This document shows, in pieces, positions 27,164-53,736 of a stretch of DNA of 64,000 nt. The notes below the pieces were generated by a model. The model searched no databases, was not told where the DNA came from, and saw nothing but the letters and a program-made list of their open reading frames with translations. The translations under genes and the position numbers were made by a program. Origin of the DNA: Nitrospiria bacterium (GTDB taxonomy: Bacteria > Nitrospirota > Nitrospiria > JACQBZ01); the NCBI GenBank assembly GCA_035498035.1, contig DATKAN010000061.1:19720-83719 (forward strand). The letters run 5' to 3'. Within the stretch, counting starts at the first letter, position 1, and every line of letters begins with the position of its first letter.

Positions 27164-27178
27164 GCGAAGGAACCCAAG

Positions 27179-28351
27179 ATGGCATTAGAAGGCTCCCTCA
27201 AAGATTTTGGCTTGGCCGATATCTTTCAACTGATCTACCACCAGAAGAAAACGGGGACTCTGACGATGAAAAACGCCTCAATGGAGGCGAAGGTCCTGTT
27301 TGAAAACGGATGTGTCGTCAAGGCGGAGTCTTCTAACCTGGAAGGTCCGAATAAGATCGGACAAATATTGGCCCGCTCCAACAAGATCACCGAGGATCAA
27401 CTTAAACAAGCTTTATCTAATCAACAGAATTCTAAAGATAAAATTGGTGAAATCCTCATAGGAATGGGGGCCATACAAAAAGAAGATTTGGTCAAAGCCT
27501 TGGGAATTCATGTCAGAGAAGCCGTATTAAGTTTGTTCAAATGGAAAGAAGGACGCTACAGTTTTGAACCTTCGGAGATGATCTCGATTGAACGGGATTA
27601 CTGGCTTCCTGTCAATACCGAATTTCTCATAATGGAAGGGGTTCGGAGAATTGACGAGTGGCCCTTCATCGAGAAAAAAATTCCCAACCTGGAGATTGTT
27701 TTTGAGAAAAGCGGAGAGATCACCGACACCTTAAGGGTTGCAAACTCTGAAGAAGATCCGACCGCTGATATATTCGCCGAAAAGAAAACGGATAAGGAAA
27801 TTCAAATTACACAAGAAGAGATGAACATTTATAACCTGATCGACGGTCAACAGAATGTCAGGGGTTTGATCGATATCACCAATATGGGAGAATTTGAAAC
27901 CTGCAAGGCCTTAAGCAATTTGCTGACGGCTGGGCTGATCGTTCAGAAATACAAAACGGACGCCCCCAAAAAAGAAATAGGCACAACCACACCCAGCAAG
28001 GTACGGATTTCATGGCTTTCCAGTCGGCAGTTGCTGAGTGGTTTGATAATATTTATCTGTATTCTCATCATGGTCGCTGGAGGATGGCAGATAATGCAAA
28101 GGGCGAAGGAGACTGAAGATTTTGTTGGCTTGTACAGAAACATGGGTTTGGAAAACCGCATGCAAGGGATTGCCAACACCATCCTGGTTTACCATTACCG
28201 GAACGCTCAGCTTCCCAAATCTCTCGATGTCCTGTCACATGAAGGTTATATTTCCGAGAAATCGCCGCTACGGGGAGTAACAACGGAAATAGGGTATGAA
28301 ATGCAAAGCGACGCCTCTTCATTTACATTAAAGACTGATGGGAACCCGTAG
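27179..28351 (+). CDS. DUF4388-domain protein
   Basis: N-terminal LEGSLKDFGLADIFQLI...KTGTL, W.EGRYSF, LIMEGVRRIDEW (recalled DUF4388 pattern); C-terminal TM helix. Confidence 0.7.
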   Translation: MALEGSLKDFGLADIFQLIYHQKKTGTLTMKNASMEAKVLFENGCVVKAESSNLEGPNKIGQILARSNKITEDQLKQALSNQQNSKDKIGEILIGMGAIQKEDLVKALGIHVREAVLSLFKWKEGRYSFEPSEMISIERDYWLPVNTEFLIMEGVRRIDEWPFIEKKIPNLEIVFEKSGEITDTLRVANSEEDPTADIFAEKKTDKEIQITQEEMNIYNLIDGQQNVRGLIDITNMGEFETCKALSNLLTAGLIVQKYKTDAPKKEIGTTTPSKVRISWLSSRQLLSGLIIFICILIMVAGGWQIMQRAKETEDFVGLYRNMGLENRMQGIANTILVYHYRNAQLPKSLDVLSHEGYISEKSPLRGVTTEIGYEMQSDASSFTLKTDGNP

Positions 28352-28356
28352 ATTAT

Positions 28357-28384
28357 AGTTTACATAATATACATTATCAGACAT
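28357..28384 (-). other. dif: XerCD dif site (chromosome dimer resolution)
   Basis: Minus strand ATGTCTGATAA-TGTATA-TTATGTAAACT, an 11-6-11 layout closely matching E. coli dif GGTGCGCATAA-TGTATA-TTATGTTAAAT; intergenic. Confidence 0.92.
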
Positions 28385-28411
28385 TATTAAGATCGAAAGA
28401 GCGGAACTGAA

Positions 28412-28984
28412 ATGAAACAGGTTGGTTTTAAAACTTTCGGTCAATGGCTATCAAGTCAGATGGCCGCGGCTAAATTGTCTCCGGACCAGCTTGCAAGCTC
28501 TTTACGATATCCGAGCGCCCAATCCATCAAGCGGCTCTGTGACAATCAATCGCGTCTTGAAATGAAGGACTGGCCTACCGTTGCCAAACTTTTACAAATA
28601 CGGCTCGATGAATTTTTGATCGTACTGGAATACTTCCATCCGGATTGGGTTTCGGAATATGAAGAGTTCATTTCCAACTGTCTACGCTATCTGTTGTGGC
28701 GCGTAGAACAGAATCAACAATTCCCTGTCCCCTTGCCCGAGTTATTATTGAGCGTCACGATGAATGAAATCGTCGAACCGGCCTGCGCCGATCGATACGT
28801 TTCGATCGAAAACCGCCGCAAGGCCGACCGAAGAATGACGAAGGTGGAACCCGAAAGAGACAATCGCTCCCGACCACGGCGACTCACCGATCTGATCCAT
28901 TACCTAAAAAATCAAATCGGACTCCTCACGGTAATCAGTCTCTTCACTTCGGGTGCCACTGTGTTGCAGGGCTGGGTTTTCTAA
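28412..28984 (+). CDS. Hypothetical protein with a possible N-terminal XRE-like HTH and a C-terminal hydrophobic helix
   Basis: FGQWLSSQMAAAKLSPDQLASSLRYPSAQSIKRL helix pattern; Arg-rich RRKADRR segment. Confidence 0.5.
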   Translation: MKQVGFKTFGQWLSSQMAAAKLSPDQLASSLRYPSAQSIKRLCDNQSRLEMKDWPTVAKLLQIRLDEFLIVLEYFHPDWVSEYEEFISNCLRYLLWRVEQNQQFPVPLPELLLSVTMNEIVEPACADRYVSIENRRKADRRMTKVEPERDNRSRPRRLTDLIHYLKNQIGLLTVISLFTSGATVLQGWVF

Positions 28985-29559
28985 TGAAGCTGACCCAGCG
29001 TTTCCGTCGAGAAATCGGCCTGGCCTGGACCGCCATCGAAAAGTTGGTCGTGTCGACCGCCGAACAGACCTCCCGCCAGATTGAGACCCTGCGTTTATCT
29101 TTCCAGATCCACGAACAGGAACAAGCATTGGACGCGGTCTTCGAACATATGGGACGGTTTTTATATGAGTTCCGTGAAAAAAACACGGAGGCAATCCTCG
29201 CCCATGCCGTTTCTCAAACTTGTCTTTCGGATTTCAACCGTCTTCAAGGCCAGCTCAAGTTCATGGAGCGGAGACGATATGACCTACAGGAAGAAAACGT
29301 CTCGACAAAATGGGCGGAGTTTGTCGAGTCGGTTTATCGAAACGGCATGACGCTTGATTCCCTCGTTCTTCCATTTAATTTAAATCCGCCCTCCCCGACC
29401 CTGCAATCCCTGGCGCTTCCTCAAGGCGTTCTGGTGATCGCGATTCAACGCCATGGGAAATTTATTCAACCGCATGATGGCGTGTTGCTCCAACGAGGCG
29501 ATCGATTGACATTGCTTGGTCCTCCGCAACAAATCATTCAAGTCCTGGGGCGATTTTAA
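28984..29559 (+). CDS. Coiled-coil protein with C-terminal TrkA_C (RCK_C) domain
   Basis: LQSLALPQGVLVIAIQRHGKFIQPHDGVLLQRGDRLTLLG matches the TrkA_C pattern; translationally coupled to the upstream gene. Confidence 0.7.
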   Translation: MKLTQRFRREIGLAWTAIEKLVVSTAEQTSRQIETLRLSFQIHEQEQALDAVFEHMGRFLYEFREKNTEAILAHAVSQTCLSDFNRLQGQLKFMERRRYDLQEENVSTKWAEFVESVYRNGMTLDSLVLPFNLNPPSPTLQSLALPQGVLVIAIQRHGKFIQPHDGVLLQRGDRLTLLGPPQQIIQVLGRF

Positions 29560-29588
29560 ATGCCGCGAGGATCGACGATCGATTTTGG

Positions 29589-29669
29589 CTTTCCACAAAA
29601 TTTGTGGAAAAGTTGTGGTTAACCCTGTTAATATACCCCTTGAGGGCTTGAACAGAGCGGCTTTGCACA
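29589..29669. promoter_or_regulatory. Cluster of DnaA-box-like 9-mers, including a 21-bp palindrome
   Basis: CTTTCCACA (29589, +), TTTTCCACA (29603-29611, -; fits TTWTNCACA), TTAACCACA (29614-29622, -), CTTTGCACA (29661, +). Confidence 0.45.
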
Positions 29670-29848
29670 CATTGCATAAAAAATGTGCAGTGAAATATTC
29701 GTGAAATTGAAAGGTTCAGAGGTTCACGGTTAAATTCTTTCGGATCATATCCGACCCCGTAAGCCATCCGGCTTGTATTTTGCTGGACCATTTGTTAAAC
29801 TGAAAACAGAAGGCGCAAAATTATTATTTCAGGTGAGGAGGATTCATA

Positions 29849-31249
29849 ATGGGTAGTAGTATGAAGGCTTCAGGACGTCGTTTGATTTCCGTGGGTATCA
29901 TCGCGGGCCTGTCGGCTTTATGGGTTATGACTCAATCCATGCCGGCCCAGGCCAAAGACAGCAACGGAATGAAGATGCTCCAAGAGATGGAAAATGTATT
30001 CGTGGATCTTGCGGAGCGCGTCAAACCGGCGGTGGTGAATATTTCTCCGGCCACACATCCCACACCCAAACAGGGCGATTCACCCCGTGGAGACCGTCCT
30101 CCGGAGAGTTCCGGATCCGGTTCGGGGGTGATCATCGATAAAAAAGGATACATCGTCACGAACAATCACGTGGTTGGCGATGCTTCTGAAGTGGAGGTTC
30201 GTCTTTCGGATAAGAGTCATTTTACCGGAAAAGTGATCGGTAAAGATCCGGACACGGATGTCGCCGTCGTCAAAGTGGAGTCCGACCATGATCTTCCCTT
30301 CGTTAAGATGGGGGACTCCAGCACGGTTCGGGTGGGACAGTGGGTTATGGCGGTCGGCAACCCATTCGGCCTGGATCGCACGGTAACGCTTGGGGTGGTA
30401 AGCGCCCTCGGACGCGAAAATGTCAACCTTTCCCGATATGAGGATTTTATTCAGACCGACGCCTCGATCAACCCCGGGAACAGCGGCGGTCCATTGTTCA
30501 ATCTGGATGGTGAAGTCATCGGAATCAATACCGCCATCATTAACTTTGCACAGGGCATCGGATTTGCCATTCCTTCCAGCATGGTCCAGAATGTGATGAA
30601 TCAGCTGATCTCCAAAGGGCACGTGGTGCGGGGCTGGTTGGGGGTGGGAATCCAACCGGTGACCTCCGATCTCGCGTCCAAGTTCAATGTCAAGGAGGAT
30701 GAAGGCGTTCTGGTGAACGAGGTATTCGAAGGCGATCCCGCTTCGAAGGCGGGAATGCAGCCGGGCGATATCATTCTCAAGCTGGATGGAAAAACGGTGG
30801 ACACCCCCCAGACCCTGTCCCGCATAATCGCATCCTTCCCGCCTGGAAAAGATGCGGCGTTTGAAATCATCCGGGACGGCCAACGTAAGAACCTGACCGT
30901 CAAACTGGGCGAGCGGAAAGAAGAAGCGGTTACGGCCTCGATTCCGAAGCAACAGCCCGAAATGGTACTGGGCTTGAACGTCCAGGACCTGACGCCGGAC
31001 CTGGCCGATCGTTTCAAGCTCAAGGACGAAAAAGGCGTATTGGTAACAAAGGTCGAGCCCGGCAGCTCGGCCGACTCGGAAGGCATCAAGGAAGGGGATC
31101 TCATCAAAGAGGTGAACCGGAACAAGGTGGAGAATTCGGACGACTTCCGGAATGCCATTGGAAAGGTGAAAAAAGGGGAAAGCGTTTTGATCCGTATCAT
31201 CCGTGAAGACCGCGCCTTTTACGTGGTTCTCAAAACAGATTCGGAATAA
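29849..31249 (+). CDS. Do/DegQ family periplasmic serine endoprotease with two PDZ domains
   Basis: Signal peptide, GSGVII, TNNHVV (His), DVAVVK (Asp), NPGNSGGPL (Ser), RGWLGVGIQ and a second PDZ. Confidence 0.95.
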   Translation: MGSSMKASGRRLISVGIIAGLSALWVMTQSMPAQAKDSNGMKMLQEMENVFVDLAERVKPAVVNISPATHPTPKQGDSPRGDRPPESSGSGSGVIIDKKGYIVTNNHVVGDASEVEVRLSDKSHFTGKVIGKDPDTDVAVVKVESDHDLPFVKMGDSSTVRVGQWVMAVGNPFGLDRTVTLGVVSALGRENVNLSRYEDFIQTDASINPGNSGGPLFNLDGEVIGINTAIINFAQGIGFAIPSSMVQNVMNQLISKGHVVRGWLGVGIQPVTSDLASKFNVKEDEGVLVNEVFEGDPASKAGMQPGDIILKLDGKTVDTPQTLSRIIASFPPGKDAAFEIIRDGQRKNLTVKLGERKEEAVTASIPKQQPEMVLGLNVQDLTPDLADRFKLKDEKGVLVTKVEPGSSADSEGIKEGDLIKEVNRNKVENSDDFRNAIGKVKKGESVLIRIIREDRAFYVVLKTDSE

Positions 31250-31263: not shown

Positions 31264-31305
31264 AAAAAGCCCCGTTCAATTTCTATTGAACGGGGCTTTT
31301 TTTTT
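31264..31305 (+). terminator. Intrinsic terminator (probably bidirectional)
   Basis: AAAAA-GCCCCGTTCAAT-TTCT-ATTGAACGGGGC-T9. Confidence 0.9.
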
Positions 31306-31419
31306 GCAGAAATTTTACAGGTTGAAATAGCCTATGATATGATAAAAGAATGTCTTTATCCATTCGATCATGGAAGAATCCGTCCAGACCCTTTTATTCA
31401 TTTTTCCTTGAAAGGATCC

Positions 31420-34400
31420 ATGAAACGCTTCCGTTTTGATGTGATCGTCATCGGCTGCGGACCCGCCGGCGCCTCGGCTGCCGTGACACTGGCCCGGGCC
31501 GGACTGTCCGTTCTTGTATTGGAAGCCGGGGTTTATGCCGGCGCCGAAAACTGGTCCGGTTGCGTTTATTTCGCGGAAAACCTGGCGGAACCGGATGCAT
31601 TCGGAGAGGCCGCCGTCACGGCCGCCCCTTACGAACGCCGGTTGGTGCGTAGGGGAATATTCCTGCACAACGGGCTGGATCTGGTCGGTCTTTCCTATCA
31701 AAACCAAGATACCTTCCGTCATTGTTACACGGTTCTTCGTCCCGTTTACGATCCTTACTGGGCCGACAAGGTCCAGACCCAGGGAGCGATGCTGCTGCCG
31801 CAAACGACCGTCACCTCCCTGATCCGAAGGGGCGGTCGCGTGGTCGGCGTCGAAACCGAACACGGGCCGGTTTATGCCGACGTAACCTTTATCGCCGAAG
31901 GCGATGCGTCCCATCTCATCCGGCGTGAACGGTTGGAGCGCGTTAGCGAGCCCCACTTCATGCAAGGAGTTAAGGCGGTTCTCAGCCTTCCGCCGACCGT
32001 AATTGACGAGCGCTTCCATCTCTCCCCGGGAGAAGGCTGTGCCCATGAATACCTGATTCGGAACGGGCAGATGGGCGGACAGACGGCTCATCTGAACATC
32101 GGCGCCTTTCTCTACACCAATCGGGACAGCCTTTCGTTCGGTTACGTGGTACCGCTTGAAAACTTAAAAGAAGCTTATCGCGGCGACCACAGCCGCCTGC
32201 TTGAATGGCTACGCGGCCTCCCCCATTTTAAGCCGCTTCTAAAGGACGCCGCTTTATCGGCCTACGGAACCAAGCTGATTCGCAGCGGCGGCTTAAGAGA
32301 ACAACCGCTGCTTGTCGAAGACGGCCTTGCCGTCGGCGGCGCCGCAGCCGGCTTGGGGATCGATCTCCCCTATCCGAATTTCACAGGTCCTTCCTCGGCC
32401 AGCGGTCTGTTATTCGCCCGTGCCGTTCGCGGACTTCTCCATGACGGTCAATCAATCACGGCAGACCGCCTTCGGCAGAGTTATCTCGAGCCTTTGCAGG
32501 CCAGCGTCTACGGTCAAAATGCCGCGTTCTTGTCGTCTTGGCCCGAATATCTCGAAAACAGCCGGACCTTTTTCGGACGATCGGCCGACCTGGCCTGCGG
32601 ACTGGTCCATTTTCTGACCCAGCCGAATGCCCGCTTATGGCAGGCCGCCCGTTTCCTGCGAGGCCACCTGTCGATCCGGACGCTTCGGGAAGTTTTCGGA
32701 GACGCCGCGCATATGATCCGGGCATCGGGACTCAAGTCGGCGCTTTCCGCCAGCCTGAAACCTTATCTGCTGGGTCGATGGACGGCCGCTCTTTTCAGAC
32801 CGGGATTGAAGGCGCACCCCGGCTTTCAATTCCGGATCGAAATCCTGGACCGGCCGGCGGTGGATATTCAAAAATTTCCCTGGCCGCTCCGTCCTGTGCT
32901 GACGAGATTGTTGCCCGGGTTGGCCGAGGGGATGAAGATCGTCTACGCCAACGACGGCAGGCCTTTATCCGAGAAGTTCCGCGAGGCCTCCCGCAGCGTT
33001 CTCGAACGATTGAAAATTACCGATGGAATCACCCTCCCGGTCTTCGTTCTGTTCCTCGCGACTCTGGCTTTGGTGTCTGTTTTATTCGACTTCATCCGGT
33101 ACTACCTGTTCCGACAGCCGGTCGAGAAGGTTTTGGGCGGACCCGTAACGGATTACCTTCATACCCAACAAACGCTGAGGGACCTGGATCAGGCCAAGAC
33201 GGTCGATTCGTTCGAGGCGAAACTGGCCACCAATTCCTACCGTCTGGGACACCGTTCCCACATCCGCGTCCTCTGGCCGGAGGAGCTCGCGCATCACGGA
33301 GACCTGGCCCAATCCTCCCTCTGGTCGGTCTGCCCGGCACGGGTCTACCAGTACGATCCGCCCCTGGTCGGACGCGGCGTGGTAATGGTCAATTATGAAA
33401 ATTGCATCAAATGCGAATCGTGCTGGCATGCCGCGGGGGATCAAGTGCGCTGGGGACGGCACACCGATCATCGCCTGATCTACAGGCCCGACTCGGAATC
33501 CATTCAGATTCTATTGGGTCAAAAACCTCCATCGAGCCCCCCACGCCCCCCGCGCGAAGAATCGGGACCCAGACCCGATCCCAAGCCGGGGGTTTCCATA
33601 CAAGGCCCGCATCGAGAAATTCTTGCCGCCCTCTCCGATTCGCTCGCATCCGTTTTCCGGGCCGTTTGCGCGTTTGAGACCGCCGTGGAACACATCCCCG
33701 CCTCCGCCGATGCGACCCGACGCGAATGGCCCAGAAAAATTGGGGGGATGACGACCCAGCGGATGGGCGCGCTTGCATCCCTGCTCTCATCCGAAAAAAT
33801 AACCGAGGCGTTTTCGGTCTCCGGATTTTCGGATCGGATCAGGATGGAATGGCATCAGATTCTCCAGGAGGACGGAAAGGATCTCGAACTTCAGTTGTCC
33901 GCCGGGCAGGAGTTCCATGCCTTATCGGCGGCCCGCCGAATTCGGGAGGAGGTTGTCCGTCCGATGATCGAAGCGGTGGATGCCATCCTTCCGCCTTCCG
34001 ATGGAATGATGGGAGACCGGGACCGAAGGCCTCCCGAACCGAATCTTGGCGATCGGATCGCGGCGCTGTTTCCGGACCGCATCGTGAAAGAGTGGGAAAA
34101 TTCCCCGATCCCATCGGATGCCCGCGAACGGCTTCATTATCTTTTCATGGAATATGCCGATCGACCGACATCTTTGATTCGAGCTCTCTCGTCCACGAGT
34201 CCGGCCTTGGGACTGCTGGCCGCCGGCCACACCGAGGCCTTGACGATTCTCAGGCAAACGGGGCAGCCTCTCCGCGGGGATTTGTGCGCCATAGACGCTC
34301 AGGTCCTATCGATCCAAAACGCAAAGGAGGGTCCCATCATCGATGGGGTCGTCGAACTTGTCCCGCTCTCCCTATCCAAGGGGCTGTTGATCGTTTGTGA

Positions 34401-37400
34401 TAACGAAGCCTGGCAGGTTCCCCTTGGACAGCCGGGGCTTAAAACGACCCCGACGCCGGCCGTCGGGTTCCGATCGGCCGGACTTCATCGATTGGAATTC
34501 AAGGCTGTCAAGGCTCATGGACCGGCGCTTCCCGTCGGCGACGGTCGGCGCTTCGGGACGGATTATGCCGCCGTCGCCCTTGGAACGGCGGATTACCTGG
34601 CCCGTCGCGTCAAGGAGCATGCGGATGGCCGCGTGCAGTTCGCCCACCAGATGCGGGACACGCAGGGCAGGGACGGAATCGCCAAGCTGGGCGCGGTCAA
34701 GGCCATGATCGCACGCATCGAAGCCTGGCACCTCCTCCTCACCGTGCTTTTGGAGGAGGGCATCGATCCCGGCCCGCCGGAGCATTTCCCGGGATGGCCG
34801 GACCTCTGCGCGACGGTCGCGACCCTGGCCTTCGGGCCCCAGGCGGGACAAATGGGATACGACGCCGGCCAGGTCTTCGGAGGGTTTGCCTATTCCGAGG
34901 ACGATCTTCTGTCCCGCGCCTACCGGGACAGCGCATTGTTTCGGTTTCTGCCCGCGGGCTTCGGCGCCGCGGAACGCCTGATGCGCCGCCTTCAGGAAAA
35001 TCGCGACGCCCTTGAATCCGCGGTCGCCTCAAGGAACCGTCTGTGGAATGAAGTTCGAAAGGGCCCCTTGGCCGACACGGCGACACGATGGGATGAAACG
35101 ACTAAGCGCTGGATGGGGCTCTCCTCCGAATGCGATCCGGCCCTCTCCGGCGAGGCGGGCGCATTGCTGTTGGGGGCGCACCGGGTTCTGTGCCAGGTGC
35201 AGCAGAAACTCGAGCAGGCGCTTCCGGTCGAAGGAGAGGCGGCCTCGAGCGCGGTCGTGATCCATCTGGCCGAACAGGCCGTGGACGCGATGGAGTTCCG
35301 GCGGCGAGACTCTCCCCTCCTGCCCATCGCGGTTTTTCCGGAAAGGCCCGCGGCCGAGCGGGTGGAACTGCCAATGTCATACGAGGCGATCTGCAATCCT
35401 TCGTCCGCCGGATCATCCCAGCCTTATCAATCCGGTCAGTATTTGCTCGCGCCCCTTGATCCCTCGGTCCGCTTCGTTCCCGAAGTCCAATTGCACGATC
35501 CCTCGCTTCGCGATCGATGGCAGGGCTGCACCGACTGGTTCCTCGAGCATATCTGGACGAAGAGTTTCGATGGAATGCATATCGAAAGATATGTGGAGAA
35601 AATCCACGGAATACCGGACGGCACGCTCGAAGGGTTCAAGAAGAACGGATATTTTTCAACGGTCATTCCCTCGGAGCTGGACGGCGGCGGCTGGTGGAAG
35701 GCGGAATATTATATCCTGACGACGGCGGCCGGCCGTTTCGGCGACGCCGGTTTGTTGCTTGTGATCATGGCCAGCACCAGCATCGGAACGACGCCGATGC
35801 TCCTCGGACTGGAAAAGGAGCTGCCGCTTGCGGTCCAGGAGCTGGAACCGCTGGCCCGCGATCCGCAACAGCTCGGAGAGATCGGGGATCGCTTGGACCG
35901 GCTGATCGCCGGAATGAAACGGCCGGACCCCGCCCGTCTGAAAAAGGGGTTCACGGAATTGATGTCCCTCGTCGATTCGCGGATCCGCCACACCCGCGTG
36001 GTGAAATACCTGGCGGCGAATTTTCTTAAGACTTTTTACGCCGCCGCCATCGCGGGTCAACGCCGGGACCTGGAAGGATTCCGCCGGGGTCTGGCGGAGG
36101 CCAAACCCCTGTTTGACATCCTGGCGCCGACCATCCGGCTGGCGGTGGACGAATTGCCGCGACGCGAACGGGCCCATCAATTTTTCTTAAAGAAACTCGG
36201 GCACGGAGGAATCAGCGCCTTTGCCTTGACCGAGCCGACGGCCGGCTCCGACACCGGCGGGGTGAAGACCACGGCCCGTCCGATGAGCCGCCCCCTGACC
36301 TCTCTCGAGGATGGGCGCTATCGTTTCAGCTTGACGAATGATGAAACCCCAAATCATCCTTCGCTGCGTTACATCATCGACGCCGACCGGGTCCGCTTCG
36401 ACGACCGGTCCGGTCCGTCGGGAATGGTTTACGAGCTTCCCACGGGAGAGGGCGTTCCGATCCGATGCGACGAGTACAACTATGACACGGATGAGGGCCT
36501 GCGCTATTATGTTTTTCGTGGCCAAAAAATATATTTTCATGACATCGCCCAGATCCGGGTCCGAGACGGAAAACCGGTCTACGATTTCTACGAATTAAAC
36601 GGCGCCAAGATGTGGATCACCAACGGTCGCGTGGCCACGCAGTACTGTCTCTACGCCCAGTCACCGGAAGGGGTGACGGGCTTCATGGTGGACCGCCATG
36701 CCGAGGGATTGAAGGTCGGGGCCGATGAGCGGAAGATGGGCCAACGAGGCTCGCCCACGAACGAGATCGCGATCGACCAGGTCCGAGTTCCCAAGGAATG
36801 TATCATCGGCTATGAAGGCCACGGTCAGGTCAACGCGCTCGAGACGCTCAATGTCGGCCGCTGCGGACTGGCCGTCGCCTCGATCACGCTGATGCGAAAG
36901 CTTCTCCTCGACGCCATCGAGCAGGTTCCCTCGACCCCGCGGCGCGATCGGCTCCTGGGAGAAGCCGCGGCCATCCTGTTCGGATCGGATTCGATGACCT
37001 TTCACCTGGTCGGCCTCTTTGATCGTCATACGACCGAATCGGTCCGGATGGAATCGGCGATCGCCAAGTATGTCTGCTCGGAGGATCTGCACGAAGTGAT
37101 GACGTTGATCGAGGAGGCCTACGGCCCCGTCGGCGTCACCGAACGATACCGCGTAGAAAAGCTCCGGCGCGACTCCCGGATCCTGAATATCTATGAAGGC
37201 ACGAACGAGGTTCAGCGCTTCCTCATCCTGAAAGATCTCGTCGCCCTGTCGAAGGAATGGAAGCCGATCCCGTTTCCGGAGAATTCGGAGCCTCCGTCCC
37301 GCCTGGCCTTCTGGAAAGAACTGCTTCGCGGACATGTCGCGGCCGCCGCGGAACCTTTGGGCGACACCGTCTGGATGGACGCGGTGCTTCAGCCCACCTT

Positions 37401-39489
37401 TTTCCTGTTGGCCGATATGGCCGGCGAGATCTTTCGTCTGGACTGTCTGACTTATCGCATCGGTTGGCTGAAAGACAATCGCGATAAGCTGGGAGAGGCC
37501 TATACCGACCCTCTTCTGATGCTGGGCGAACGGGCCGTATGGCGAACCGAACGACGGCTGGAACGGCTCGATCGACGTTATCGTCGGGAGGCGGAGCGAC
37601 CGGCGAAGGGCCTCTACGCCCCGGAGGCGATCGCGGCCGATGTCGCTCTGGAGCGGATGGGGAAGAAACCGACGGCCGAACCAAGGCCGGAGGGCCGACT
37701 GGAACGACCGCTTCGGATTCTCTGTCTGCTCCGACGGGTGGCCGATATCGCTCCCACCCCGCGGCTCAGAGAAGGACACCTGTCCGAAATCGTTTGGCGT
37801 TTAAACCCCTCCGACGAAGCCGCGGTCCGCATGGCGACCGGCTTAAAAAAGACCGGCGGCTCATCCAAGACGGTTCATATCGCATTGTCCGGGGGACCCG
37901 AAGCCGAACCCCAGCTCCGCTGGGCCCTGGGGTACGGGGCCGACGCGGCCTACCGCATCGACGCATCCGCGACGGCCGACGGCTCCGCTTGGATCGAGGC
38001 GATTACCCTTCTTGAAAAATCCGGAAAGTACGACCTGATTCTGACCGGGTCCGCCTCGGAAGACGGCGCCGAGGCCCTCGGGCCTTTCGTGGCCGGTGCC
38101 CTGTCGCGCCATTTTGGGAGGGCCTCTTCCATGGAGATCGTGGAGGAGGGCCGCGGGCTTGCGGTCCGGTCGGGCGCGGATGACTCGAAGATCAAGGTGC
38201 TTCCGACGGAGCCCTTGGTCCTGGCTTGGGAAGGATCCGACGCCCCCCGTCCCATGGAGATCAACCGATTGATCGAGGGGAGGCTGGCCCCCATCCGGCG
38301 CTTATCGGTTCAGGAGAAGGTGGTCCCCGAACGATTATCCCCCGCCCGTACGGTCGTCCGCAAAAGCGAAACGATCCGTGAGCTGGGCGGGGTGGCCGAG
38401 TACCTTGACGCCTATCGGGTCGGAGTCCGGGCGATGGAGGCCGAGCCCTATCGATCGAGGATCGATTCTATGCCCCTTCCGACCGGACCGGCGGTCTGGA
38501 CAATTATTGAAGCGCAGCAACGCAAGATGATTCCGGCCCTGCTGGGCGCGGCCAATTTCCTGGGACGGTCTCTGGAACTGAACAGCTATGCCGCGGTATT
38601 GGGGCCGGAGGAGACCTGGCCGCAGCTGAGCGGCCTGGCACAGGCCCGCGGCTTGACCGGGACGGTCTGCATTCCGGCTCCCGAAGGTCTGTTGACTGAA
38701 TCCGGCCGGATGGAATGGCTTGAAAACTTTTCAAGCGTTGTCCCGAATATCCGGATCGTCTGCGGCCCGCACTGGTCCGATGCCCTTGCGCATTTGTCGG
38801 GACGTATCAACGGCAAAGGCTCCCTGCTTTTCACCGAGGTGACCGAGATCGACCGACGCGAGGGCCTCTCGCTTTTTAAACCGGCCTACGGGGGGAAATT
38901 GCGGCGATCCGTCAACCCGGTCCTTTCGCAGACCCCCCATTTGCTTATGACGGTCTCCCCGACCGCCGATTTTCCGTCGGGCGAACCCTCGGCCCGATTC
39001 GCGGCCGGGAAGGCGGAGGTAAAAACAATCGCTGTCAATCCCGACCGCTTCGAATCCGTGCCTCCGCTTTCCCTGGATGACCTGGCCTCGGCCGAGGTGA
39101 TTATCGACATCGGATACGGCGTCCGGAATCAGGAAGGATTTCATCTCGTGGGCCGGCTCAAGGAGGCTATGGAACATTTGGGCCTGACGGTTCATCTCGG
39201 CGCGACGCGCAAAGTGACCCAAGATCTTAAACTCCTCCCGCTTTCGCACCAGATCGGCCAGACCGGGGCGAGGGTGAATCCGAAATTGATTCTCGCGCTG
39301 GGCATTTCCGGGGCGCCACAGCACATGGACTACATCGGCGACCGCGCCGTGATCTTCGCCTTCAACAAAGACCCCCAGGCCCCGCTCATGAAACTCAACG
39401 AAACCCGCCCGGCACCCGTCGTCCATCCGATCGTCGGCGATCTTTTCGTTACCATTCCGAAATTGATCGAGATGCTGTCGGCAAAATAA
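31420..39489 (+). CDS. Giant fusion: ETF:quinone oxidoreductase (FixC plus FixX-like 4Fe-4S) - degenerate ACAD - VLCAD-like acyl-CoA dehydrogenase - ETF-beta - ETF-alpha (~2,690 aa)
   Basis: One uninterrupted frame containing VIVIGCGPAG (31441); CPARVY...NCIKCESC (33331-33423); FALTEPTAGSD (~36226), LNGAKMWITNG (~36598), IYEGTNEVQR (~37189); ETF-beta LNPSDEAAV...ALGYGAD; ETF-alpha GATRK, QIGQTG, GISGAPQH, NKDPQAP. Start at ATG 31420 after AAAGGA. Confidence 0.85.
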   Translation: MKRFRFDVIVIGCGPAGASAAVTLARAGLSVLVLEAGVYAGAENWSGCVYFAENLAEPDAFGEAAVTAAPYERRLVRRGIFLHNGLDLVGLSYQNQDTFRHCYTVLRPVYDPYWADKVQTQGAMLLPQTTVTSLIRRGGRVVGVETEHGPVYADVTFIAEGDASHLIRRERLERVSEPHFMQGVKAVLSLPPTVIDERFHLSPGEGCAHEYLIRNGQMGGQTAHLNIGAFLYTNRDSLSFGYVVPLENLKEAYRGDHSRLLEWLRGLPHFKPLLKDAALSAYGTKLIRSGGLREQPLLVEDGLAVGGAAAGLGIDLPYPNFTGPSSASGLLFARAVRGLLHDGQSITADRLRQSYLEPLQASVYGQNAAFLSSWPEYLENSRTFFGRSADLACGLVHFLTQPNARLWQAARFLRGHLSIRTLREVFGDAAHMIRASGLKSALSASLKPYLLGRWTAALFRPGLKAHPGFQFRIEILDRPAVDIQKFPWPLRPVLTRLLPGLAEGMKIVYANDGRPLSEKFREASRSVLERLKITDGITLPVFVLFLATLALVSVLFDFIRYYLFRQPVEKVLGGPVTDYLHTQQTLRDLDQAKTVDSFEAKLATNSYRLGHRSHIRVLWPEELAHHGDLAQSSLWSVCPARVYQYDPPLVGRGVVMVNYENCIKCESCWHAAGDQVRWGRHTDHRLIYRPDSESIQILLGQKPPSSPPRPPREESGPRPDPKPGVSIQGPHREILAALSDSLASVFRAVCAFETAVEHIPASADATRREWPRKIGGMTTQRMGALASLLSSEKITEAFSVSGFSDRIRMEWHQILQEDGKDLELQLSAGQEFHALSAARRIREEVVRPMIEAVDAILPPSDGMMGDRDRRPPEPNLGDRIAALFPDRIVKEWENSPIPSDARERLHYLFMEYADRPTSLIRALSSTSPALGLLAAGHTEALTILRQTGQPLRGDLCAIDAQVLSIQNAKEGPIIDGVVELVPLSLSKGLLIVCDNEAWQVPLGQPGLKTTPTPAVGFRSAGLHRLEFKAVKAHGPALPVGDGRRFGTDYAAVALGTADYLARRVKEHADGRVQFAHQMRDTQGRDGIAKLGAVKAMIARIEAWHLLLTVLLEEGIDPGPPEHFPGWPDLCATVATLAFGPQAGQMGYDAGQVFGGFAYSEDDLLSRAYRDSALFRFLPAGFGAAERLMRRLQENRDALESAVASRNRLWNEVRKGPLADTATRWDETTKRWMGLSSECDPALSGEAGALLLGAHRVLCQVQQKLEQALPVEGEAASSAVVIHLAEQAVDAMEFRRRDSPLLPIAVFPERPAAERVELPMSYEAICNPSSAGSSQPYQSGQYLLAPLDPSVRFVPEVQLHDPSLRDRWQGCTDWFLEHIWTKSFDGMHIERYVEKIHGIPDGTLEGFKKNGYFSTVIPSELDGGGWWKAEYYILTTAAGRFGDAGLLLVIMASTSIGTTPMLLGLEKELPLAVQELEPLARDPQQLGEIGDRLDRLIAGMKRPDPARLKKGFTELMSLVDSRIRHTRVVKYLAANFLKTFYAAAIAGQRRDLEGFRRGLAEAKPLFDILAPTIRLAVDELPRRERAHQFFLKKLGHGGISAFALTEPTAGSDTGGVKTTARPMSRPLTSLEDGRYRFSLTNDETPNHPSLRYIIDADRVRFDDRSGPSGMVYELPTGEGVPIRCDEYNYDTDEGLRYYVFRGQKIYFHDIAQIRVRDGKPVYDFYELNGAKMWITNGRVATQYCLYAQSPEGVTGFMVDRHAEGLKVGADERKMGQRGSPTNEIAIDQVRVPKECIIGYEGHGQVNALETLNVGRCGLAVASITLMRKLLLDAIEQVPSTPRRDRLLGEAAAILFGSDSMTFHLVGLFDRHTTESVRMESAIAKYVCSEDLHEVMTLIEEAYGPVGVTERYRVEKLRRDSRILNIYEGTNEVQRFLILKDLVALSKEWKPIPFPENSEPPSRLAFWKELLRGHVAAAAEPLGDTVWMDAVLQPTFFLLADMAGEIFRLDCLTYRIGWLKDNRDKLGEAYTDPLLMLGERAVWRTERRLERLDRRYRREAERPAKGLYAPEAIAADVALERMGKKPTAEPRPEGRLERPLRILCLLRRVADIAPTPRLREGHLSEIVWRLNPSDEAAVRMATGLKKTGGSSKTVHIALSGGPEAEPQLRWALGYGADAAYRIDASATADGSAWIEAITLLEKSGKYDLILTGSASEDGAEALGPFVAGALSRHFGRASSMEIVEEGRGLAVRSGADDSKIKVLPTEPLVLAWEGSDAPRPMEINRLIEGRLAPIRRLSVQEKVVPERLSPARTVVRKSETIRELGGVAEYLDAYRVGVRAMEAEPYRSRIDSMPLPTGPAVWTIIEAQQRKMIPALLGAANFLGRSLELNSYAAVLGPEETWPQLSGLAQARGLTGTVCIPAPEGLLTESGRMEWLENFSSVVPNIRIVCGPHWSDALAHLSGRINGKGSLLFTEVTEIDRREGLSLFKPAYGGKLRRSVNPVLSQTPHLLMTVSPTADFPSGEPSARFAAGKAEVKTIAVNPDRFESVPPLSLDDLASAEVIIDIGYGVRNQEGFHLVGRLKEAMEHLGLTVHLGATRKVTQDLKLLPLSHQIGQTGARVNPKLILALGISGAPQHMDYIGDRAVIFAFNKDPQAPLMKLNETRPAPVVHPIVGDLFVTIPKLIEMLSAK

Positions 39490-39609: not shown

Positions 39610-40050
39610 ATGAATCCACCGATTCCCCTCCGATCCCCGCGCGAAATGCTGGGCGGGTATGTTTTTCTTCCGCGATTGATCGACAAGGTCCGGCTGCACG
39701 CGCAAGGAAAACTCCCGCCGGAATATGTCGGCAATCTCCTCAAACCGGGATTGACTCTGGACGGACGCTTGCTTACGTTTACCGGGCTGAATGCGGAGGC
39801 GTTGCGTCGTGCAATCCTGACCTCGAAGACGGACGTCGAGATCTTTGCCTGGGTCGAGCGACATGCAAAGCCCCATACTGAGGGCGAGAAGCGGCAATGG
39901 ATCGCGGAGATCGAGTCCTATCGGCCGAATCCGGAAACAGCCCGATGGCGAAGGGAGACTTACAAGGAATTGGCCGCCCGGATCGATCCGGCTACGCTGA
40001 GCCTGTTTGATCTGATCGACATGGACGAAGGCCGGATTCCCCCACCATGA
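39610..40050 (+). CDS. DUF5069-like protein
   Basis: LRSPREMLGGYVFLPRLIDKVRLHAQGKLPPEY...LDGRLLTFTG...FDLIDMDEGR (recalled family pattern). Confidence 0.7.
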   Translation: MNPPIPLRSPREMLGGYVFLPRLIDKVRLHAQGKLPPEYVGNLLKPGLTLDGRLLTFTGLNAEALRRAILTSKTDVEIFAWVERHAKPHTEGEKRQWIAEIESYRPNPETARWRRETYKELAARIDPATLSLFDLIDMDEGRIPPP

Positions 40051-40058
40051 AATAACCG

Positions 40059-41900
40059 CTACGGTATCCGGACGATGCGTAAGGAATCCGGAACAGTTTC
40101 CCAAGTAATGACCGGCCCTTTTTCCTGCGTTTTCATCAACCCTTTGTGATCTTTGCGACCGAAGTAACTCGTCCCCAACGGCAGTCTTTTAATCACCTTA
40201 AACCCGGCCTCGCTGTGACAGATCTCGCATCGTGTTCCCAACTCGCCCTCATGAATGTCGTCTTTCTGGTGGCATCGAACGCACATGCGGGACGTTTTTT
40301 GGGAAAAGAGCTGTTTGACATGGCATTGCTCGCATTTCAATTGACTGTGCTTCATTACGAGCGCATAACCGGTCTCCTTCGCGTGATCAAAATCATCCCG
40401 TTTCCAGGTCTTCGCGGTGTGACAAGCCTCGCATTTTTTCCCGAAGTGCCCCTTGTGATAGTCGTCTTTTATATGACAATCGTTACAGACCGAGGAGGTG
40501 TCCTTGAAAAGCGCCGTCTTATGACATTCGGAACAGCGAACATCCCGGTGTTTGTCCAGAAGCTTAAAATTCGTTTTCTGATGGTCGAATTTCTGAATGT
40601 CCTTCCATCCCTTTTCCGTATGGCAGGTCTCGCAGGTATCCCCCAATTGCCCCTTGTGCTTATCGTCAGGCCGATGACACGAGGCGCATCGACTCGGGAT
40701 CTTGTAGGCCTCCTGGACATGGCATTTCGAGCAGGGAACGTCCAGATGCTTCCCGATGAGCGGATAGTCCGTCTTCGAATGATCGAAACCGATTTTCTTC
40801 CAATCCACGGCCGAATGGCAACGGGCGCATTCCCGTCCCAGTTTGCCTTTGTGGTAATCGTCCTCTTTATGGCACTCGACACAGGTCTTCGGCGTCGATT
40901 TCATGTCCGGAGTTTTATGACATTTCAGGCATTCCACGTTTTGATGTTTTCCGACCAGATTAAACCGGGTCTTGTCGTGGTCGAATAAAACGTCCTTCCA
41001 CTCCTTCACCGTGTGACATTGCGCGCATTGGGGACCGAGGACGCCCTTATGCCGGTCGACACGCTTATGGCACTCGACGCAGGTCTTCGGCGTTTCCCGA
41101 AGCTGAGGCGTTTTATGGCATTTATTGCATTCCACCTGGCGATGGCTTCCCAGCAGTTTAAATTCGGTTTTGTCATGGTCAAAGACAATGGCCTTCCAAT
41201 CCTTCACCGTATGACAGCTCTCGCACTGCTTGCCCAGAACCCCTTTGTGCTTGTCCTTGTTAAGATGACAGCCCACGCAGGCCATCGGCGTCGCCTTGAA
41301 ATTATCGGAGGCGTGGCATTTTTCACACGCGACCGGAGCATGTTTCCCCTCCAACGGAAACCGCGTGCGGGAATGGTCGAAGCTGATCTTCTTCCATGCC
41401 TCCGAATTATGGCAACGCTCGCAGGACTTTCCCAGCGCCCCTTTGTGCTTATCCTTTTCAAGGTGGCAGGAAAAACAATCGTGGGGGGTTTCTCGGAACT
41501 TCGGTTTTAGGTGGCAGCGATCGCATTTCGTGGTTTGATGCTTCCCGGACAATTCGAATTGCGTCTTTCCGTGGTCGAAGTGGGCGGAATCAAATTGGGC
41601 GATATGGCTTTCACGTCCCTTGTGTTCCGTGTGGCAGGTCTCGCACCGGGAGGCGTCGGTTTTTCCGTGGAAACCGGTCTTCAGTTCGACATCTTTTTTG
41701 ACTTCCTTGTGACAGGCCAGACATTTATCGTAAAAAACCTTTTTGACGAGATCATGACAATCCAGGCAGCGTCCTTCAGATTTTTCGTGGACCCGGGAAA
41801 CCTTCCCGGGCATCACACCCTTCAGGATGTCGAGCGCGTCGGCCGTCCCAACGGTTGCGAGACACCACACGAAAATTGCAAGGCCGAATTTTCTCCACAT
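40059..41900 (-). CDS. Periplasmic 24-heme c-type cytochrome with seven ~66-aa triheme repeats
   Basis: 24 CXXCH motifs counted; Sec signal MWRKFGLAIFVWCLATVGTADA; repeat FDH..T.F.L.GKH-CXXCH-CXXCH-D.HKG.LG-CXXCH-W. Confidence 0.92.
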   Translation of the reverse strand: MWRKFGLAIFVWCLATVGTADALDILKGVMPGKVSRVHEKSEGRCLDCHDLVKKVFYDKCLACHKEVKKDVELKTGFHGKTDASRCETCHTEHKGRESHIAQFDSAHFDHGKTQFELSGKHQTTKCDRCHLKPKFRETPHDCFSCHLEKDKHKGALGKSCERCHNSEAWKKISFDHSRTRFPLEGKHAPVACEKCHASDNFKATPMACVGCHLNKDKHKGVLGKQCESCHTVKDWKAIVFDHDKTEFKLLGSHRQVECNKCHKTPQLRETPKTCVECHKRVDRHKGVLGPQCAQCHTVKEWKDVLFDHDKTRFNLVGKHQNVECLKCHKTPDMKSTPKTCVECHKEDDYHKGKLGRECARCHSAVDWKKIGFDHSKTDYPLIGKHLDVPCSKCHVQEAYKIPSRCASCHRPDDKHKGQLGDTCETCHTEKGWKDIQKFDHQKTNFKLLDKHRDVRCSECHKTALFKDTSSVCNDCHIKDDYHKGHFGKKCEACHTAKTWKRDDFDHAKETGYALVMKHSQLKCEQCHVKQLFSQKTSRMCVRCHQKDDIHEGELGTRCEICHSEAGFKVIKRLPLGTSYFGRKDHKGLMKTQEKGPVITWETVPDSLRIVRIP

Positions 41901-41928
41901 CGGGCGTCCCGGCGGTCTCAACAATAAC

Positions 41929-42702
41929 TCAGAATATCAATACGGCGGCGATATGAACAATCAACGTGAAGGCGAGAATCCAAATAAACGGTACATGAAG
42001 CTTGTGCCAGTAGGAAAAAAGGCTTGTTGTGGCCTCCAGGGCCGAAACGTTCTTCTCGAGACGAATCCGCTTCACAATCAGGAATTCCAACGAGTCCGAT
42101 GACTTCATGGGATTTATGACAGGCATCCGGCCCTGGGAGCGGGAAAGCCGCCTGAGCTGCCTTCTCACCTTTTTCTCAAGACGGTCCAATCGGATCAGCA
42201 GGAAGAACGGCCCGAAGAACCCACGTGATTTTTTCTTTTCTCGACGGCTGAAAAAAGTTTGGATGGTCTCGAGGATGGTTTGCGATTCTGAAACTCGTTG
42301 GGAGATATTTCGATCCAATTGTTCGATTTCCTGGATCATCTCCTTTAATGTGGCCCGTTCCCCCGATAGAGAAAACTGGAAATGCCGATAAATATAGCGA
42401 CCGAATACGCCGCTGGCCACAACGATCAGCATCGCATAAAAGGCGATGGCCGCGTTGGGGGACTTGATGAAAAAACCGGTGTGGTACACGACCAAGAGCG
42501 GCCCGAGGATGCATAGCGTGATGTGGATGTCCAACCATCGGCTCATGTTTCCCAGACTTCGGAGCACCCGGATCCTTTTACGCAGCGCATACAAGAAGGC
42601 GCCCAAAAACATCATGGTGGACCCAATAATCCCGAGCATCAACGGAACAAATGATTTCGGGGAATAGGGATGCCCTGAAAAATAAATCGGCAGGGCGACC
42701 AC
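41929..42702 (-). CDS. Inner-membrane protein with conserved-looking His residues in TM helices (cytochrome b-like, PCC3 IMP-type); start uncertain
   Basis: WLDIHITL, VVYHTGF, WHKLHVP, LIVHIAA in hydrophobic segments; located between the porin and cytochrome genes. Confidence 0.72.
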   Translation of the reverse strand: MVALPIYFSGHPYSPKSFVPLMLGIIGSTMMFLGAFLYALRKRIRVLRSLGNMSRWLDIHITLCILGPLLVVYHTGFFIKSPNAAIAFYAMLIVVASGVFGRYIYRHFQFSLSGERATLKEMIQEIEQLDRNISQRVSESQTILETIQTFFSRREKKKSRGFFGPFFLLIRLDRLEKKVRRQLRRLSRSQGRMPVINPMKSSDSLEFLIVKRIRLEKNVSALEATTSLFSYWHKLHVPFIWILAFTLIVHIAAVLIF

Positions 42703-45807: not shown

Positions 45808-45829
45808 TTTGTTTTCCCCTATTTCAGAC

Positions 45830-45864
45830 AAAAAAATAGCCGCCAAAGGATTTCCTCTGGCGGC
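45830..45864 (-). terminator. Intrinsic terminator forming the riboswitch expression platform
   Basis: Minus strand GCCGCCAGAGG-AAAT-CCTTTGGCGGC-TATTTTTTT; the 5' arm overlaps the 3' strand of aptamer P1. Confidence 0.85.
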
Positions 45865-52235: not shown

Positions 52236-52273
52236 GGTGATCTCCTTTCCGTTTATACTTTTGATGGGGACTT

Positions 52274-53509: not shown

Positions 53510-53736
53510 TTTTTCTCCATAAGAGATGCAGGGGGATTAATCGTATCACAGGATGTCGTAATCCTGTCAAGAAGAGAGGCCCGAGGTCCATTGCAACCGT
53601 GGCGGAGATCTTATATTAGAATCACAACGGTCGCGCGGAAGAAGTTAGATTTGGACGATAAAAATTGCAAGGACTTCCCAGTGTGGTGACGACGGTTATC
53701 ACGGGCCTTGGATGCAGACCAACTGGAAAAAGGGAT

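Follow-up and report, generated by a model that had tools for sequence, protein, structure and literature searches.

A gene on the forward strand of a 64,000-nt stretch of a Nitrospiria bacterium genome (GenBank assembly GCA_035498035.1, contig DATKAN010000061.1, positions 19,720 to 83,719; this whole stretch is referred to here as the window) encodes a 2,689-residue polypeptide that unites in one chain an intact acyl-CoA dehydrogenase (ACAD) active site, an electron-transfer FAD (ET-FAD) head as found in electron-transfer flavoproteins (ETFs), a four-cysteine (Cys4) motif of the ETF:quinone oxidoreductase (ETF-QO) type, a FixC/EtfC-type FAD domain and a hydrophobic helix. Judged from this architecture, the fusion protein is probably a self-contained, membrane-associated acyl-CoA:quinone oxidoreductase. 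The original prediction for this gene, an acyl-CoA-to-quinone electron chain in one polypeptide, was right about the covalent joining of the modules, while its functional half follows only from the architecture. Whole-protein and piecewise domain scans recovered the modules that had been named, in the order given. Each module is familiar by itself; new are the covalent joining of all of them in one chain, the pseudo-ACAD built into that chain, the inserted helix and the degeneration of the ETF base.

The fusion is encoded by one uninterrupted reading frame

The open reading frame (ORF) runs unbroken from 31339 to 39489 (+ strand; 2,716 codons), in agreement with the predicted single polypeptide, and some 2,700 consecutive sense codons in DNA of 60% GC cannot arise by chance. 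Translation almost certainly starts at the ATG at 31420, yielding a 2,689-aa coding sequence (31420..39489, + strand) with a ribosome-binding site (GAAAGGA, 31410-31416) and a TAA stop codon (39487-39489); residues are counted from this start throughout (q1-q2689). The choice of 31420 rests on an upstream terminator, a -10 box lying over the first ATG, the GAAAGGA preceding 31420 and the starts of homologous proteins. The intrinsic terminator (31264..31306, + strand) of an upstream HtrA-like gene, which ends at 31249, has a perfect 17-bp stem, a 4-nt loop and a T-run, and bounds the fusion gene's transcription unit on its 5' side. This hairpin was overlooked by a pattern scan, probably owing to an A-run that pairs into the T-run, and was recovered by RNA folding (-26.4 kcal/mol, z = -6.7). 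Downstream of it lies a promoter-like TTTACA-18-TATGAT element (31314..31343, + strand; 10/12 matches to consensus, TG-extended), the -10 box of which extends over the ATG at 31339, the first one in frame. The equivalent methionine is the start in all homologues aligned, and a database copy of the protein (P0001) is 100% identical with the same length of 2,689 aa.

The fusion family is real, broad and rare

A word-indexed protein search returned 379 relatives. Of the best 120, about 110 are 2,500-2,960 aa long and align to the query over its full length, with identities of 35-81%; they are drawn from JGI, NCBI, ENA and Logan assemblies. Three full-length relatives are located on contigs of 3.08, 4.36 and 5.14 Mb, and one 90%-identity cluster includes a full-length protein of 2,660-2,663 aa found on at least eight contigs. 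Continuous ORFs of 2,678 and 2,705 aa were found in two groundwater Nitrospirota metagenome-assembled genomes (MAGs; L002 and L005), and the seeming stop in a third locus (L003, MAG Hainich-H32-bin115, 12660..12760) is a run of N, a scaffold gap that splits the gene in ORF lists. With the same unbroken ORF recurring across independently assembled relatives, including those on Mb-scale contigs, it is extremely improbable that the long ORF is an artefact of adjacent genes merged by assembly or frameshift error, and this explanation was ruled out.

Source labels of the relatives include Nitrospirota/Nitrospiria, Leptospirillia, Acidobacteriota and one "Betaproteobacteria" MAG, all of them uncultured. 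A scan of a genome collection recovered five loci, all close relatives, and no cultured carrier. When the family-specific region q391-1340 was used as the query in an exhaustive HMMER search, 148 clusters were matched among 1.84 billion representatives (54 of them below 1e-30), and most of the long matches share the layout of the fusion. Given the independent full-length relatives and the small number of clusters in the exhaustive search, the fusion family is real, phylogenetically broad and numerically rare. The Betaproteobacteria-labelled sequence (P0030; 14-kb contig, 48% identity), the one close homologue labelled as neither Nitrospirota nor Acidobacteriota, groups with Nitrospirota sequences; faulty binning may explain its label better than horizontal transfer.

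Conservation was calculated from a 49-sequence full-length alignment spanning three clades. The mean majority frequency was 0.71 for the FixC domain, 0.72 for the Fe-S module, 0.76-0.77 for the ACAD core and 0.71 for EtfA domain II; the corresponding values were 0.43 for EtfB, 0.40 for EtfA domain I and 0.34-0.35 for the linkers. Columns conserved at 90% or more make up 35% of the FixC domain, 35-41% in the cofactor modules, and 1-2% of the ETF base, which consists of EtfB and EtfA domain I. Within the family, conservation is highest at the cofactor sites.

Two shorter proteins of ~1,650 aa (P0211 and P0240) were also retrieved by the q391-1340 search. They comprise the FixC domain, the hydrophobic helix and the Fe-S module at 35-38% identity, together with a helical domain and EtfB, and the chain ends directly after EtfB, without a live ACAD or EtfA. 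A stretch resembling the pseudo-ACAD gave a BLAST match in P0211 alone, and a second ACAD remnant in the same protein reads 'ALREFRMELPRF' at the YEGT position. These relatives may serve as a scaffold for separate EtfA and ACAD proteins, or may represent an evolutionary intermediate.

The N-terminal part resembles EtfC of EtfABCX

The FAD domain at the N-terminus (q1-390; 31420..32589, + strand) contains a Rossmann GxGxxG motif (q12-17, within VIGCGPAG at q9-16) and was identified as a member of the FixC/EtfC family by NCBIfam models (NF007450, 2.5e-51; FixC NF007542, 4.3e-45) and by EtfC of Thermotoga (PDB 7KOE_C, 8.8e-34 over residues 3-412). An AlphaFold 2 (AF2) model of q1-760, predicted from a 28-sequence alignment, reached a mean per-residue confidence (pLDDT) of 79 and a predicted template modelling score (pTM) of 0.81. 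A Foldseek search with this model returned 7KOE_C at a target template modelling (TM) score of 0.87 and a root-mean-square deviation of 3.0, and ranked pig ETF-QO second. The FixC/ETF-QO-type FAD domain of the original prediction was thus recovered by profile, PDB sequence and fold searches, and its nearest relative is EtfC of the bifurcating Thermotoga EtfABCX complex rather than mitochondrial ETF-QO. The FAD of this domain is proposed as the quinone-reducing flavin.

The domain is followed by a family-specific helical extension (q391-535; 32590..33024, + strand; AF2 helices with pLDDT ~85-93) and a single hydrophobic helix (q536-563; 33025..33108, + strand), which agrees with the membrane segment expected at about 33030-33095. 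The helix reaches a Kyte-Doolittle hydropathy (KD19) of 2.64 and was modelled by AF2 as a helix at 535-563 with pLDDT ~90. No other segment of the protein is strongly hydrophobic, and the helix lies within a larger helical region (q391-630). Despite variation in sequence, the corresponding position has a KD19 of 1.9 or more in 42 of the 49 aligned homologues, and the segment is usually the only one of its kind in each. It is proposed to be a monotopic or in-plane membrane anchor. This assignment was preferred since a spanning helix would separate the redox partners on either side of it, and since both flanks need cofactor insertion in the cytoplasm.

A single [4Fe-4S] module of the ETF-QO/FixX type (q631-690; 33310..33489, + strand) comes next, with C638, C662, C665 and C668 as its putative ligands. 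Its sequence, VCPARVY-x17-NCIKCESC, corresponds to the motif that had been noted and gives the spacing C-x23-C-x2-C-x2-C. HMMER aligned the Cys4 motif to the cluster motif of pig ETF-QO (2GMH, residues 527-560), and the four ligands are invariant in 49/49 sequences. No second set of cysteines was found in the module, so that one cluster is expected. The Fe-S module is connected to the remainder of the protein by a Pro-rich linker (q691-760; 33490..33699, + strand; mean majority frequency 0.35, pLDDT 41-71), presumed to be a flexible tether.

A catalytically dead ACAD precedes an intact one

Beyond the linker, a helical region (q761-875; 33700..34044, + strand) was modelled as four long helices (pLDDT ~82-91) and had no match in Pfam or the PDB. 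It leads into the first of two tandem ACAD copies (q876-1215; 34045..35064, + strand), which was assigned from a family profile, from Pfam matches in family members and from the alpha/beta/alpha layout of its AF2 model. As a single sequence this copy gave weak ACAD matches. A profile of 13 family members returned 19 PDB matches, all of them ACADs (best 2DVL_A, 2.9e-9, chain residues 69-354), and Pfam Acyl-CoA_dh_1 was found at this position in 9/13 members. FLPAG stands in place of the catalytic YEGT, and the glutamate is absent in 49/49 sequences. Its N-terminal and middle domains show little conservation, with no visible TEPxxGSD motif. In its C-terminal domain, the motifs GRVQF (RxQF), GQxFGG and YRD have been kept and are invariant; we take these to be equivalent to residues that contact the FAD of the partner subunit in structures of medium-chain acyl-CoA dehydrogenase (MCAD). 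Direct comparison of the two copies by hhalign gave no significant match (E = 0.84 global, 0.52 local). With its base glutamate and its own flavin-site motifs gone, the upstream copy is a true ACAD homologue and, judged from its sequence, a pseudo-enzyme, as the predicted "degenerate ACAD" had implied.

Three long helices and an extended linker (q1216-1340; 35065..35439, + strand; conservation 0.41) separate the pseudo-ACAD from the intact ACAD (q1341-1940; 35440..37239, + strand). The latter contains the Pfam N (weak), M and C domains and the full three-domain alpha/beta/alpha fold, with Foldseek target TM-scores of ~0.8 against many ACADs. Its catalytic glutamate (q1926, nt 37195-37197) is part of IYEGTNEVQ. 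This base and the surrounding IYEG...NEVQ are invariant in 49/49 sequences, as are TEPxAGSD and KMWITN. The best PDB matches were CarC (6FAH_C, 1e-33), MmgC (5e-33), very-long-chain acyl-CoA dehydrogenase (VLCAD; 2e-32 to 8e-32) and Bcd (5OL2_C, 8e-32), and the best NCBIfam match was a Bacillus FadE-type model (4.1e-44). The prediction of an intact ACAD with a YEGT motif was accordingly upheld, but its description as VLCAD-like was too specific: a particular affinity to VLCAD was rejected, as the domain shows no preference for it or for ACAD9 over CarC, Bcd or MmgC.

Relative to CarC, the intact ACAD carries insertions of ~117 aa and ~98 aa in its N-terminal and beta domains (q1471-1590, 35830-36189, and q1626-1725, 36295-36594; both + strand). 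Columns conserved at 90% or more account for 18% and 16% of them, and AF2 modelled them as long helices and extra beta strands. The tethered ETF or FixC modules may dock onto these insertions. When the tandem ACAD segment was modelled as a whole, it formed a compact single unit (pLDDT 83, pTM 0.80 over 1,200 residues), which fits an intramolecular pseudo-dimer.

The intact ACAD is followed by a helical domain (q1941-2090; 37240..37689, + strand) carrying 'LQPxFFxLAEMAGEI'. This region had been interpreted as the C-terminal, LADMA-type domain of a VLCAD-like ACAD, but a VLCAD-type domain could not be established: the VLCAD alignments end at the ACAD core, with these ~150 residues lying beyond, and the family profile of q1941-2090 found nothing significant in the PDB, its sole match being a faint one to an MCAD helix (281-321, E = 1.3).

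The ETF modules retain the electron-transfer site and have lost the nucleotide-site signatures

[quoted passage not shown] Its family profile matched ten ETF-beta chains at 7e-25 to 1e-11, including 4KPU_B (7e-25), 1O94_C of Methylophilus (5e-24) and human ETF-beta (7e-23). An EtfA domain I-like module (q2351-2550; 38470..39069, + strand) and EtfA domain II (q2551-2689; 39070..39486, + strand) follow; CarE (6FAH_A) aligns to EtfA over its entire length, and domain II was matched by Pfam ETF_alpha (1.4e-19) and by human ETF-alpha (3.4e-15). Both halves of the ETF had been foreseen, and the match to 4KPU_B and the CarE alignment over both EtfA domains bear this out. In domain II, Arg q2597 (GATRKV) and His q2635 (SGAPQH) are invariant in 49/49 sequences; from an alignment with human ETF-alpha we take them to be equivalent to alpha R249 and alpha H286. 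With this ET-FAD site preserved, domain II is the likely mobile head that would carry the electron-transfer FAD.

The remaining ETF base conforms to neither of the main ETF types. Criteria to separate them were taken from PMC8958531: bifurcating ETFs have a D-G-D-T-A-Q zipper (T 100%, Q 93%) and a conserved domain-I Arg, whereas canonical ETFs have D-D-D-x-N-Q, with the domain-I Arg present in 447/449 (PMC8958531). The zipper columns were read from the family alignment block q2206-2228, in which the Acidobacteriota-type sequences are among P0101-P0119 (2,800-2,960 aa). In the window, the zipper reads ED-GAEAL, a degenerate form that varies across the Nitrospirota clade, and the domain-I Arg is replaced by Lys; across the family, the Arg column contains T13, L11, K7 and R5. 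The AMP-site signature of canonical (group 1) ETFs is thus missing, and the window's clade also lacks the Thr and Gln expected of bifurcating (group 2, FixAB-type) ETFs. Within EtfB, 2% of columns are conserved at 90% or more. The ETF base of this clade therefore has neither nucleotide-site signature and is no textbook ETF. An (A/S)DTGQ zipper is kept in 15 Acidobacteriota-type sequences, in which the Arg is not conserved, and the two clades may differ in flavin content and mechanism.

As a single sequence, the EtfB module scored best against bifurcating EtfBs. The EtfB profile was dropped as a test of ancestry, since its scores for bifurcating (7e-25) and canonical (5e-24) chains were nearly equal and non-deciding. 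We infer that the family descends from a FixABCX/EtfABCX-like system whose bifurcating site later decayed, because the N-terminal module is nearest to EtfC and one clade retains a part-bifurcating zipper.

A proposed path from acyl-CoA to quinone

In the proposed mechanism, acyl-CoA would be oxidized at the FAD of the intact ACAD, with Glu q1926 as the base, and electrons would travel singly to the FAD bound by EtfA domain II, the mobile head at the C-terminus. This domain would swing to the [4Fe-4S] cluster (C638, C662, C665, C668), from which the FixC-type FAD would be reduced, and the latter would reduce quinone at the membrane surface, with q536-563 anchoring the protein in one leaflet. 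The dead ACAD would stand in for the second subunit of an ACAD dimer as a built-in partner, so the predicted cofactor content is one ACAD flavin per chain and, in total, three FADs and one [4Fe-4S] cluster. EtfB and EtfA domain I would serve mainly as a scaffold, as suggested by the decay of the AMP and bifurcating-FAD site signatures. Together with the thiolase and FadB encoded nearby, the fusion would carry out the first step of beta-oxidation and deliver the electrons straight to the quinone pool.

Several observations weigh against this proposal. The Fe-S module falls below the Pfam threshold for Fer4_ETF_QO (E = 0.01, 16.4 vs 24 bits) and was modelled with low confidence (pLDDT <50), although Fer4_ETF_QO is recorded for several homologues, with P0146 scoring 5.7e-5. 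A helix at q536-563 that spanned the bilayer would put the FixC FAD domain and the Fe-S module on opposite sides of the membrane, and the monotopic reading is an assumption adopted to escape this paradox. The two large, conserved ACAD insertions could alter the substrate, and in three distant genomes examined the gene is found by itself, away from beta-oxidation genes. The Acidobacteriota clade keeps its bifurcating-like DTGQ zipper. ETF-like dynamics are also assumed for a base without a normal nucleotide site, for which we know of no precedent. Canonical ETFs need AMP for stability (PMC8958531).

Direction of electron flow, bifurcation and substrate

The same cofactors could be used in reverse, from quinol via the FixC FAD, the Fe-S cluster, the ET-FAD and the ACAD FAD to enoyl-CoA, which would make the fusion a quinol:enoyl-CoA reductase capable of enoyl-CoA respiration in a single chain, or a reversible enzyme. 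The potentials are ~-10 mV for enoyl-CoA/acyl-CoA and ~-74 mV for menaquinone; electron flow from menaquinol to enoyl-CoA is downhill, which favours this direction. It is also in keeping with the origin of 7KOE, to which the N-terminal module is structurally closest, from a menaquinone-using anaerobe, with the enoyl-CoA-reducing enzyme CarC as the top-scoring match of the ACAD, and with multihaem cytochrome c genes in the window that suggest an anaerobic or microaerobic lifestyle. Furthermore, a chain of separate ACAD, ETF and membrane-bound ETF:methylmenaquinone oxidoreductase (EMO) works both ways in Syntrophus (PMC8805022). Nothing in the sequence fixes the direction, however, and the neighbouring thiolase and FadB fit beta-oxidation, though both enzymes are reversible. 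We consider a reductive role unlikely.

A second FAD in the ETF base would turn the fusion into a bifurcating or confurcating enzyme that couples NADH and/or ferredoxin to acyl-CoA/enoyl-CoA and quinone, a single-chain hybrid of Bcd-EtfAB and EtfABCX. The affinity of the N-terminal module to EtfC of EtfABCX speaks for such an arrangement, as do the best single-sequence EtfB scores against bifurcating EtfBs and the top profile match to 4KPU_B, but canonical EtfBs score almost equally with the profile. The DTGQ of the Acidobacteriota sequences preserves four of the six bifurcating zipper residues, and the Lys at the domain-I Arg position is tolerable in principle, as the R165K variant of RpaETF still holds two FADs (PMC8958531). 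Against this, the window's clade has ED-GAEAL and lacks both the Thr found in 100% of bifurcating ETFs and the Gln; the family's domain-I Arg column (T13, L11, K7, R5) stands in contrast to 447/449 Arg in canonical ETFs; only 1-2% of base columns are conserved at 90% or more, compared to 35-41% in the cofactor modules; and one Fe-S cluster motif is present here instead of the two reported for FixX (PMC6085437). These signature tests disfavour bifurcation in the window's clade, and we regard it as rather improbable for the fusion. There is a similarly slim chance that the fusion arose from a bifurcating FixABCX/EtfABCX-type machine and that a fourth flavin has been retained at least in the DTGQ clade. 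If so, one chain would couple acyl-CoA oxidation, NADH or ferredoxin, and menaquinone reduction, and anaerobes could push acyl-CoA electrons to menaquinone without a separate reverse electron transport driven by proton motive force; the window's clade would then be a later, simplified and non-bifurcating derivative.

Finally, the wiring could be as proposed and the substrate different, for example a bulky, branched, cyclic or carrier-bound thioester in a specialized pathway. The conserved insertions of ~117 and ~98 aa would suit this, although they may equally serve as docking surfaces for the tethered modules. NCBIfam matches of the ACAD range over acryloyl-CoA, cyclohexanecarbonyl-CoA and prolyl-PCP dehydrogenases, and beta-oxidation genes did not accompany the fusion in the other genomes examined. 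Conversely, the best NCBIfam match is the Bacillus FadE type (4.1e-44), and thiolase and FadB genes are present within the window, which makes an unusual substrate doubtful. An acyl-CoA:quinone oxidoreductase acting in beta-oxidation continues to be our preferred interpretation.

Comparison with known ACAD, ETF and quinone oxidoreductase systems

The classical chain of ACAD, ETF and ETF-QO (MCAD-ETF, 1T9G/2A1T; pig ETF-QO, 2GMH) comprises the same module types, follows the electron path proposed here, and shares the YEGT base Glu, the ET-FAD Arg and His and the C-x23-C-x2-C-x2-C motif. The fusion differs in being one polypeptide, in the order QO, pseudo-ACAD, ACAD, EtfB, EtfA. Its FAD domain is nearer to FixC/EtfC than to ETF-QO (8.8e-34 vs 5.3e-9), ~250 residues including the hydrophobic helix lie between the FAD domain and the cluster, and the AMP site of the ETF is degenerate.

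The best sequence and fold match to the N-terminal FAD domain is provided by Fix/EtfABCX of Thermotoga maritima (7KOE), a bifurcating NADH:menaquinone/ferredoxin enzyme. Both systems combine an EtfB/EtfA pair with an Fe-S module, and both are membrane-associated rather than integral, as far as predicted for the fusion. EtfABCX, in contrast, consists of four separate subunits, has no ACAD and contains a bifurcating FAD whose signature the fusion lacks. Thermotoga EtfX carries two [4Fe-4S]-binding motifs. Two such motifs have likewise been reported for FixX (PMC6085437).

A permanent 1:1 association of ACAD and ETF, as in the fusion, is found in Bcd-EtfAB (5OL2) and CarCDE (6FAH). CarC is the top match for the live ACAD, with Bcd close, and CarE was near-tied with human ETF-alpha for EtfA. 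These complexes are non-covalent, soluble, NADH/ferredoxin-dependent and bifurcating, with homotetrameric ACADs and no quinone module, whereas the fusion has a covalent link, a pseudo-ACAD partner and a quinone-reductase module.

Partial precedents exist for the individual fusions. EtfB-EtfA of Sulfolobus acidocaldarius was reported in 2025 as the first biochemically characterized monomeric ETF (PMC12042025). It has the same order of EtfB then EtfA in a single chain; it is ~600 aa long, is bifurcating with two FADs and requires separate partners. A multidomain butyryl-CoA dehydrogenase of Fusobacterium nucleatum, reportedly described by Bystrom and Wolthers in 2024, is said to join an ACAD to EtfA domain II and, going by the title of that work, feeds an O2-reducing flavodiiron protein, not quinone. 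The pairing of an active with a base-less ACAD has its counterpart in the alpha2beta2 ACADs of Mycobacterium tuberculosis (FadE26-FadE27 and ChsE1-ChsE2), in which an active subunit is paired with a homologous partner that has neither the base nor a flavin site of its own, so that each pair has one FAD. Those partners are separate polypeptides, whereas in the fusion they are tandem copies, with pairing inferred from the joint AF2 model.

Other bacterial links between ETF and the (methyl)menaquinone pool are EMO and EtfD, neither of which is known to be related to FixC or ETF-QO. In Syntrophus, EMO is bidirectional and has two haems b as well as FeS clusters (PMC8805022); the EtfD protein of M. 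tuberculosis is a membrane oxidoreductase (PMC8593149). Neither has been reported as fused to ETF or ACAD.

Full-text literature searches brought up no account of a chain in which the quinone reductase and cluster are joined to an ACAD pair and an ETF, in line with the original prediction that it had not been characterized; two candidate papers (PMC2702500 and PMC6037941) proved irrelevant. Public databases already hold such sequences under generic names ("acyl-CoA dehydrogenase family protein", "ETF-quinone oxidoreductase"), and the protein is hence uncharacterized rather than unseen.

ACAD, ETF and ETF-QO contact each other only transiently, so that structures of the whole path from acyl-CoA to quinone have been difficult to obtain. 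In a natural single chain the stoichiometry would be fixed at 1:1:1, which would make cryo-EM, kinetics and electrochemistry of the entire path possible and would allow the shuttling of the ETF flavin head from donor to acceptor to be studied. From an evolutionary perspective, the fusion would be a case of a dead ACAD retained as a built-in dimer partner and of an ETF base without a nucleotide site previously thought to be near-universal. [quoted passage not shown] In uncultured groundwater Nitrospirota, Leptospirillia and Acidobacteriota, the family would represent a different wiring for the oxidation or reduction of fatty acids.

Genomic neighbourhood of the fusion gene

About 6.7 kb downstream of the fusion gene and on the same strand, Pfam identified an adjacent FadA/FadB-like pair composed of a thiolase (46169..47443, + strand) and a FadB-type enoyl-CoA hydratase/3-hydroxyacyl-CoA dehydrogenase (47450..49627, + strand), which supply the remaining steps of beta-oxidation. 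The pair is separated from the fusion gene by a cytochrome cluster on the opposite strand. Multihaem cytochrome c genes were found at 40059..41924, 44644..45882 and 58737..60002 (all - strand; c7/c3, MtrC/MtrF-like or c552-like matches). Two ORFs lie between two of the cytochrome genes, one unannotated (41929..42702) and one with only a weak TPR match (42831..44834), and the cytochrome genes together with these intervening ORFs have the appearance of a gene cluster for electron transfer in the periplasm or outside the cell.

Immediately downstream, a DUF5069 gene (39610..40050, + strand) starts 120 nt past the stop codon of the fusion gene. No + strand terminator was detected between the two, and the DUF5069 gene may be co-transcribed with the fusion gene; in three distant genomes examined, DUF5069 is not adjacent to the fusion gene. 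Upstream, the window encodes a TPR protein, a DUF4388 protein, two small ORFs and an HtrA-type protease (25289..31249, + strand). The same order and sizes of upstream ORFs were observed in L002 and L005, as compared by ORF sizes only. The GC content of the fusion gene (0.59-0.62) is similar to that of most of the window (0.55-0.62), which dips to 0.46-0.50 at 26001..30000 and 52001..57000.

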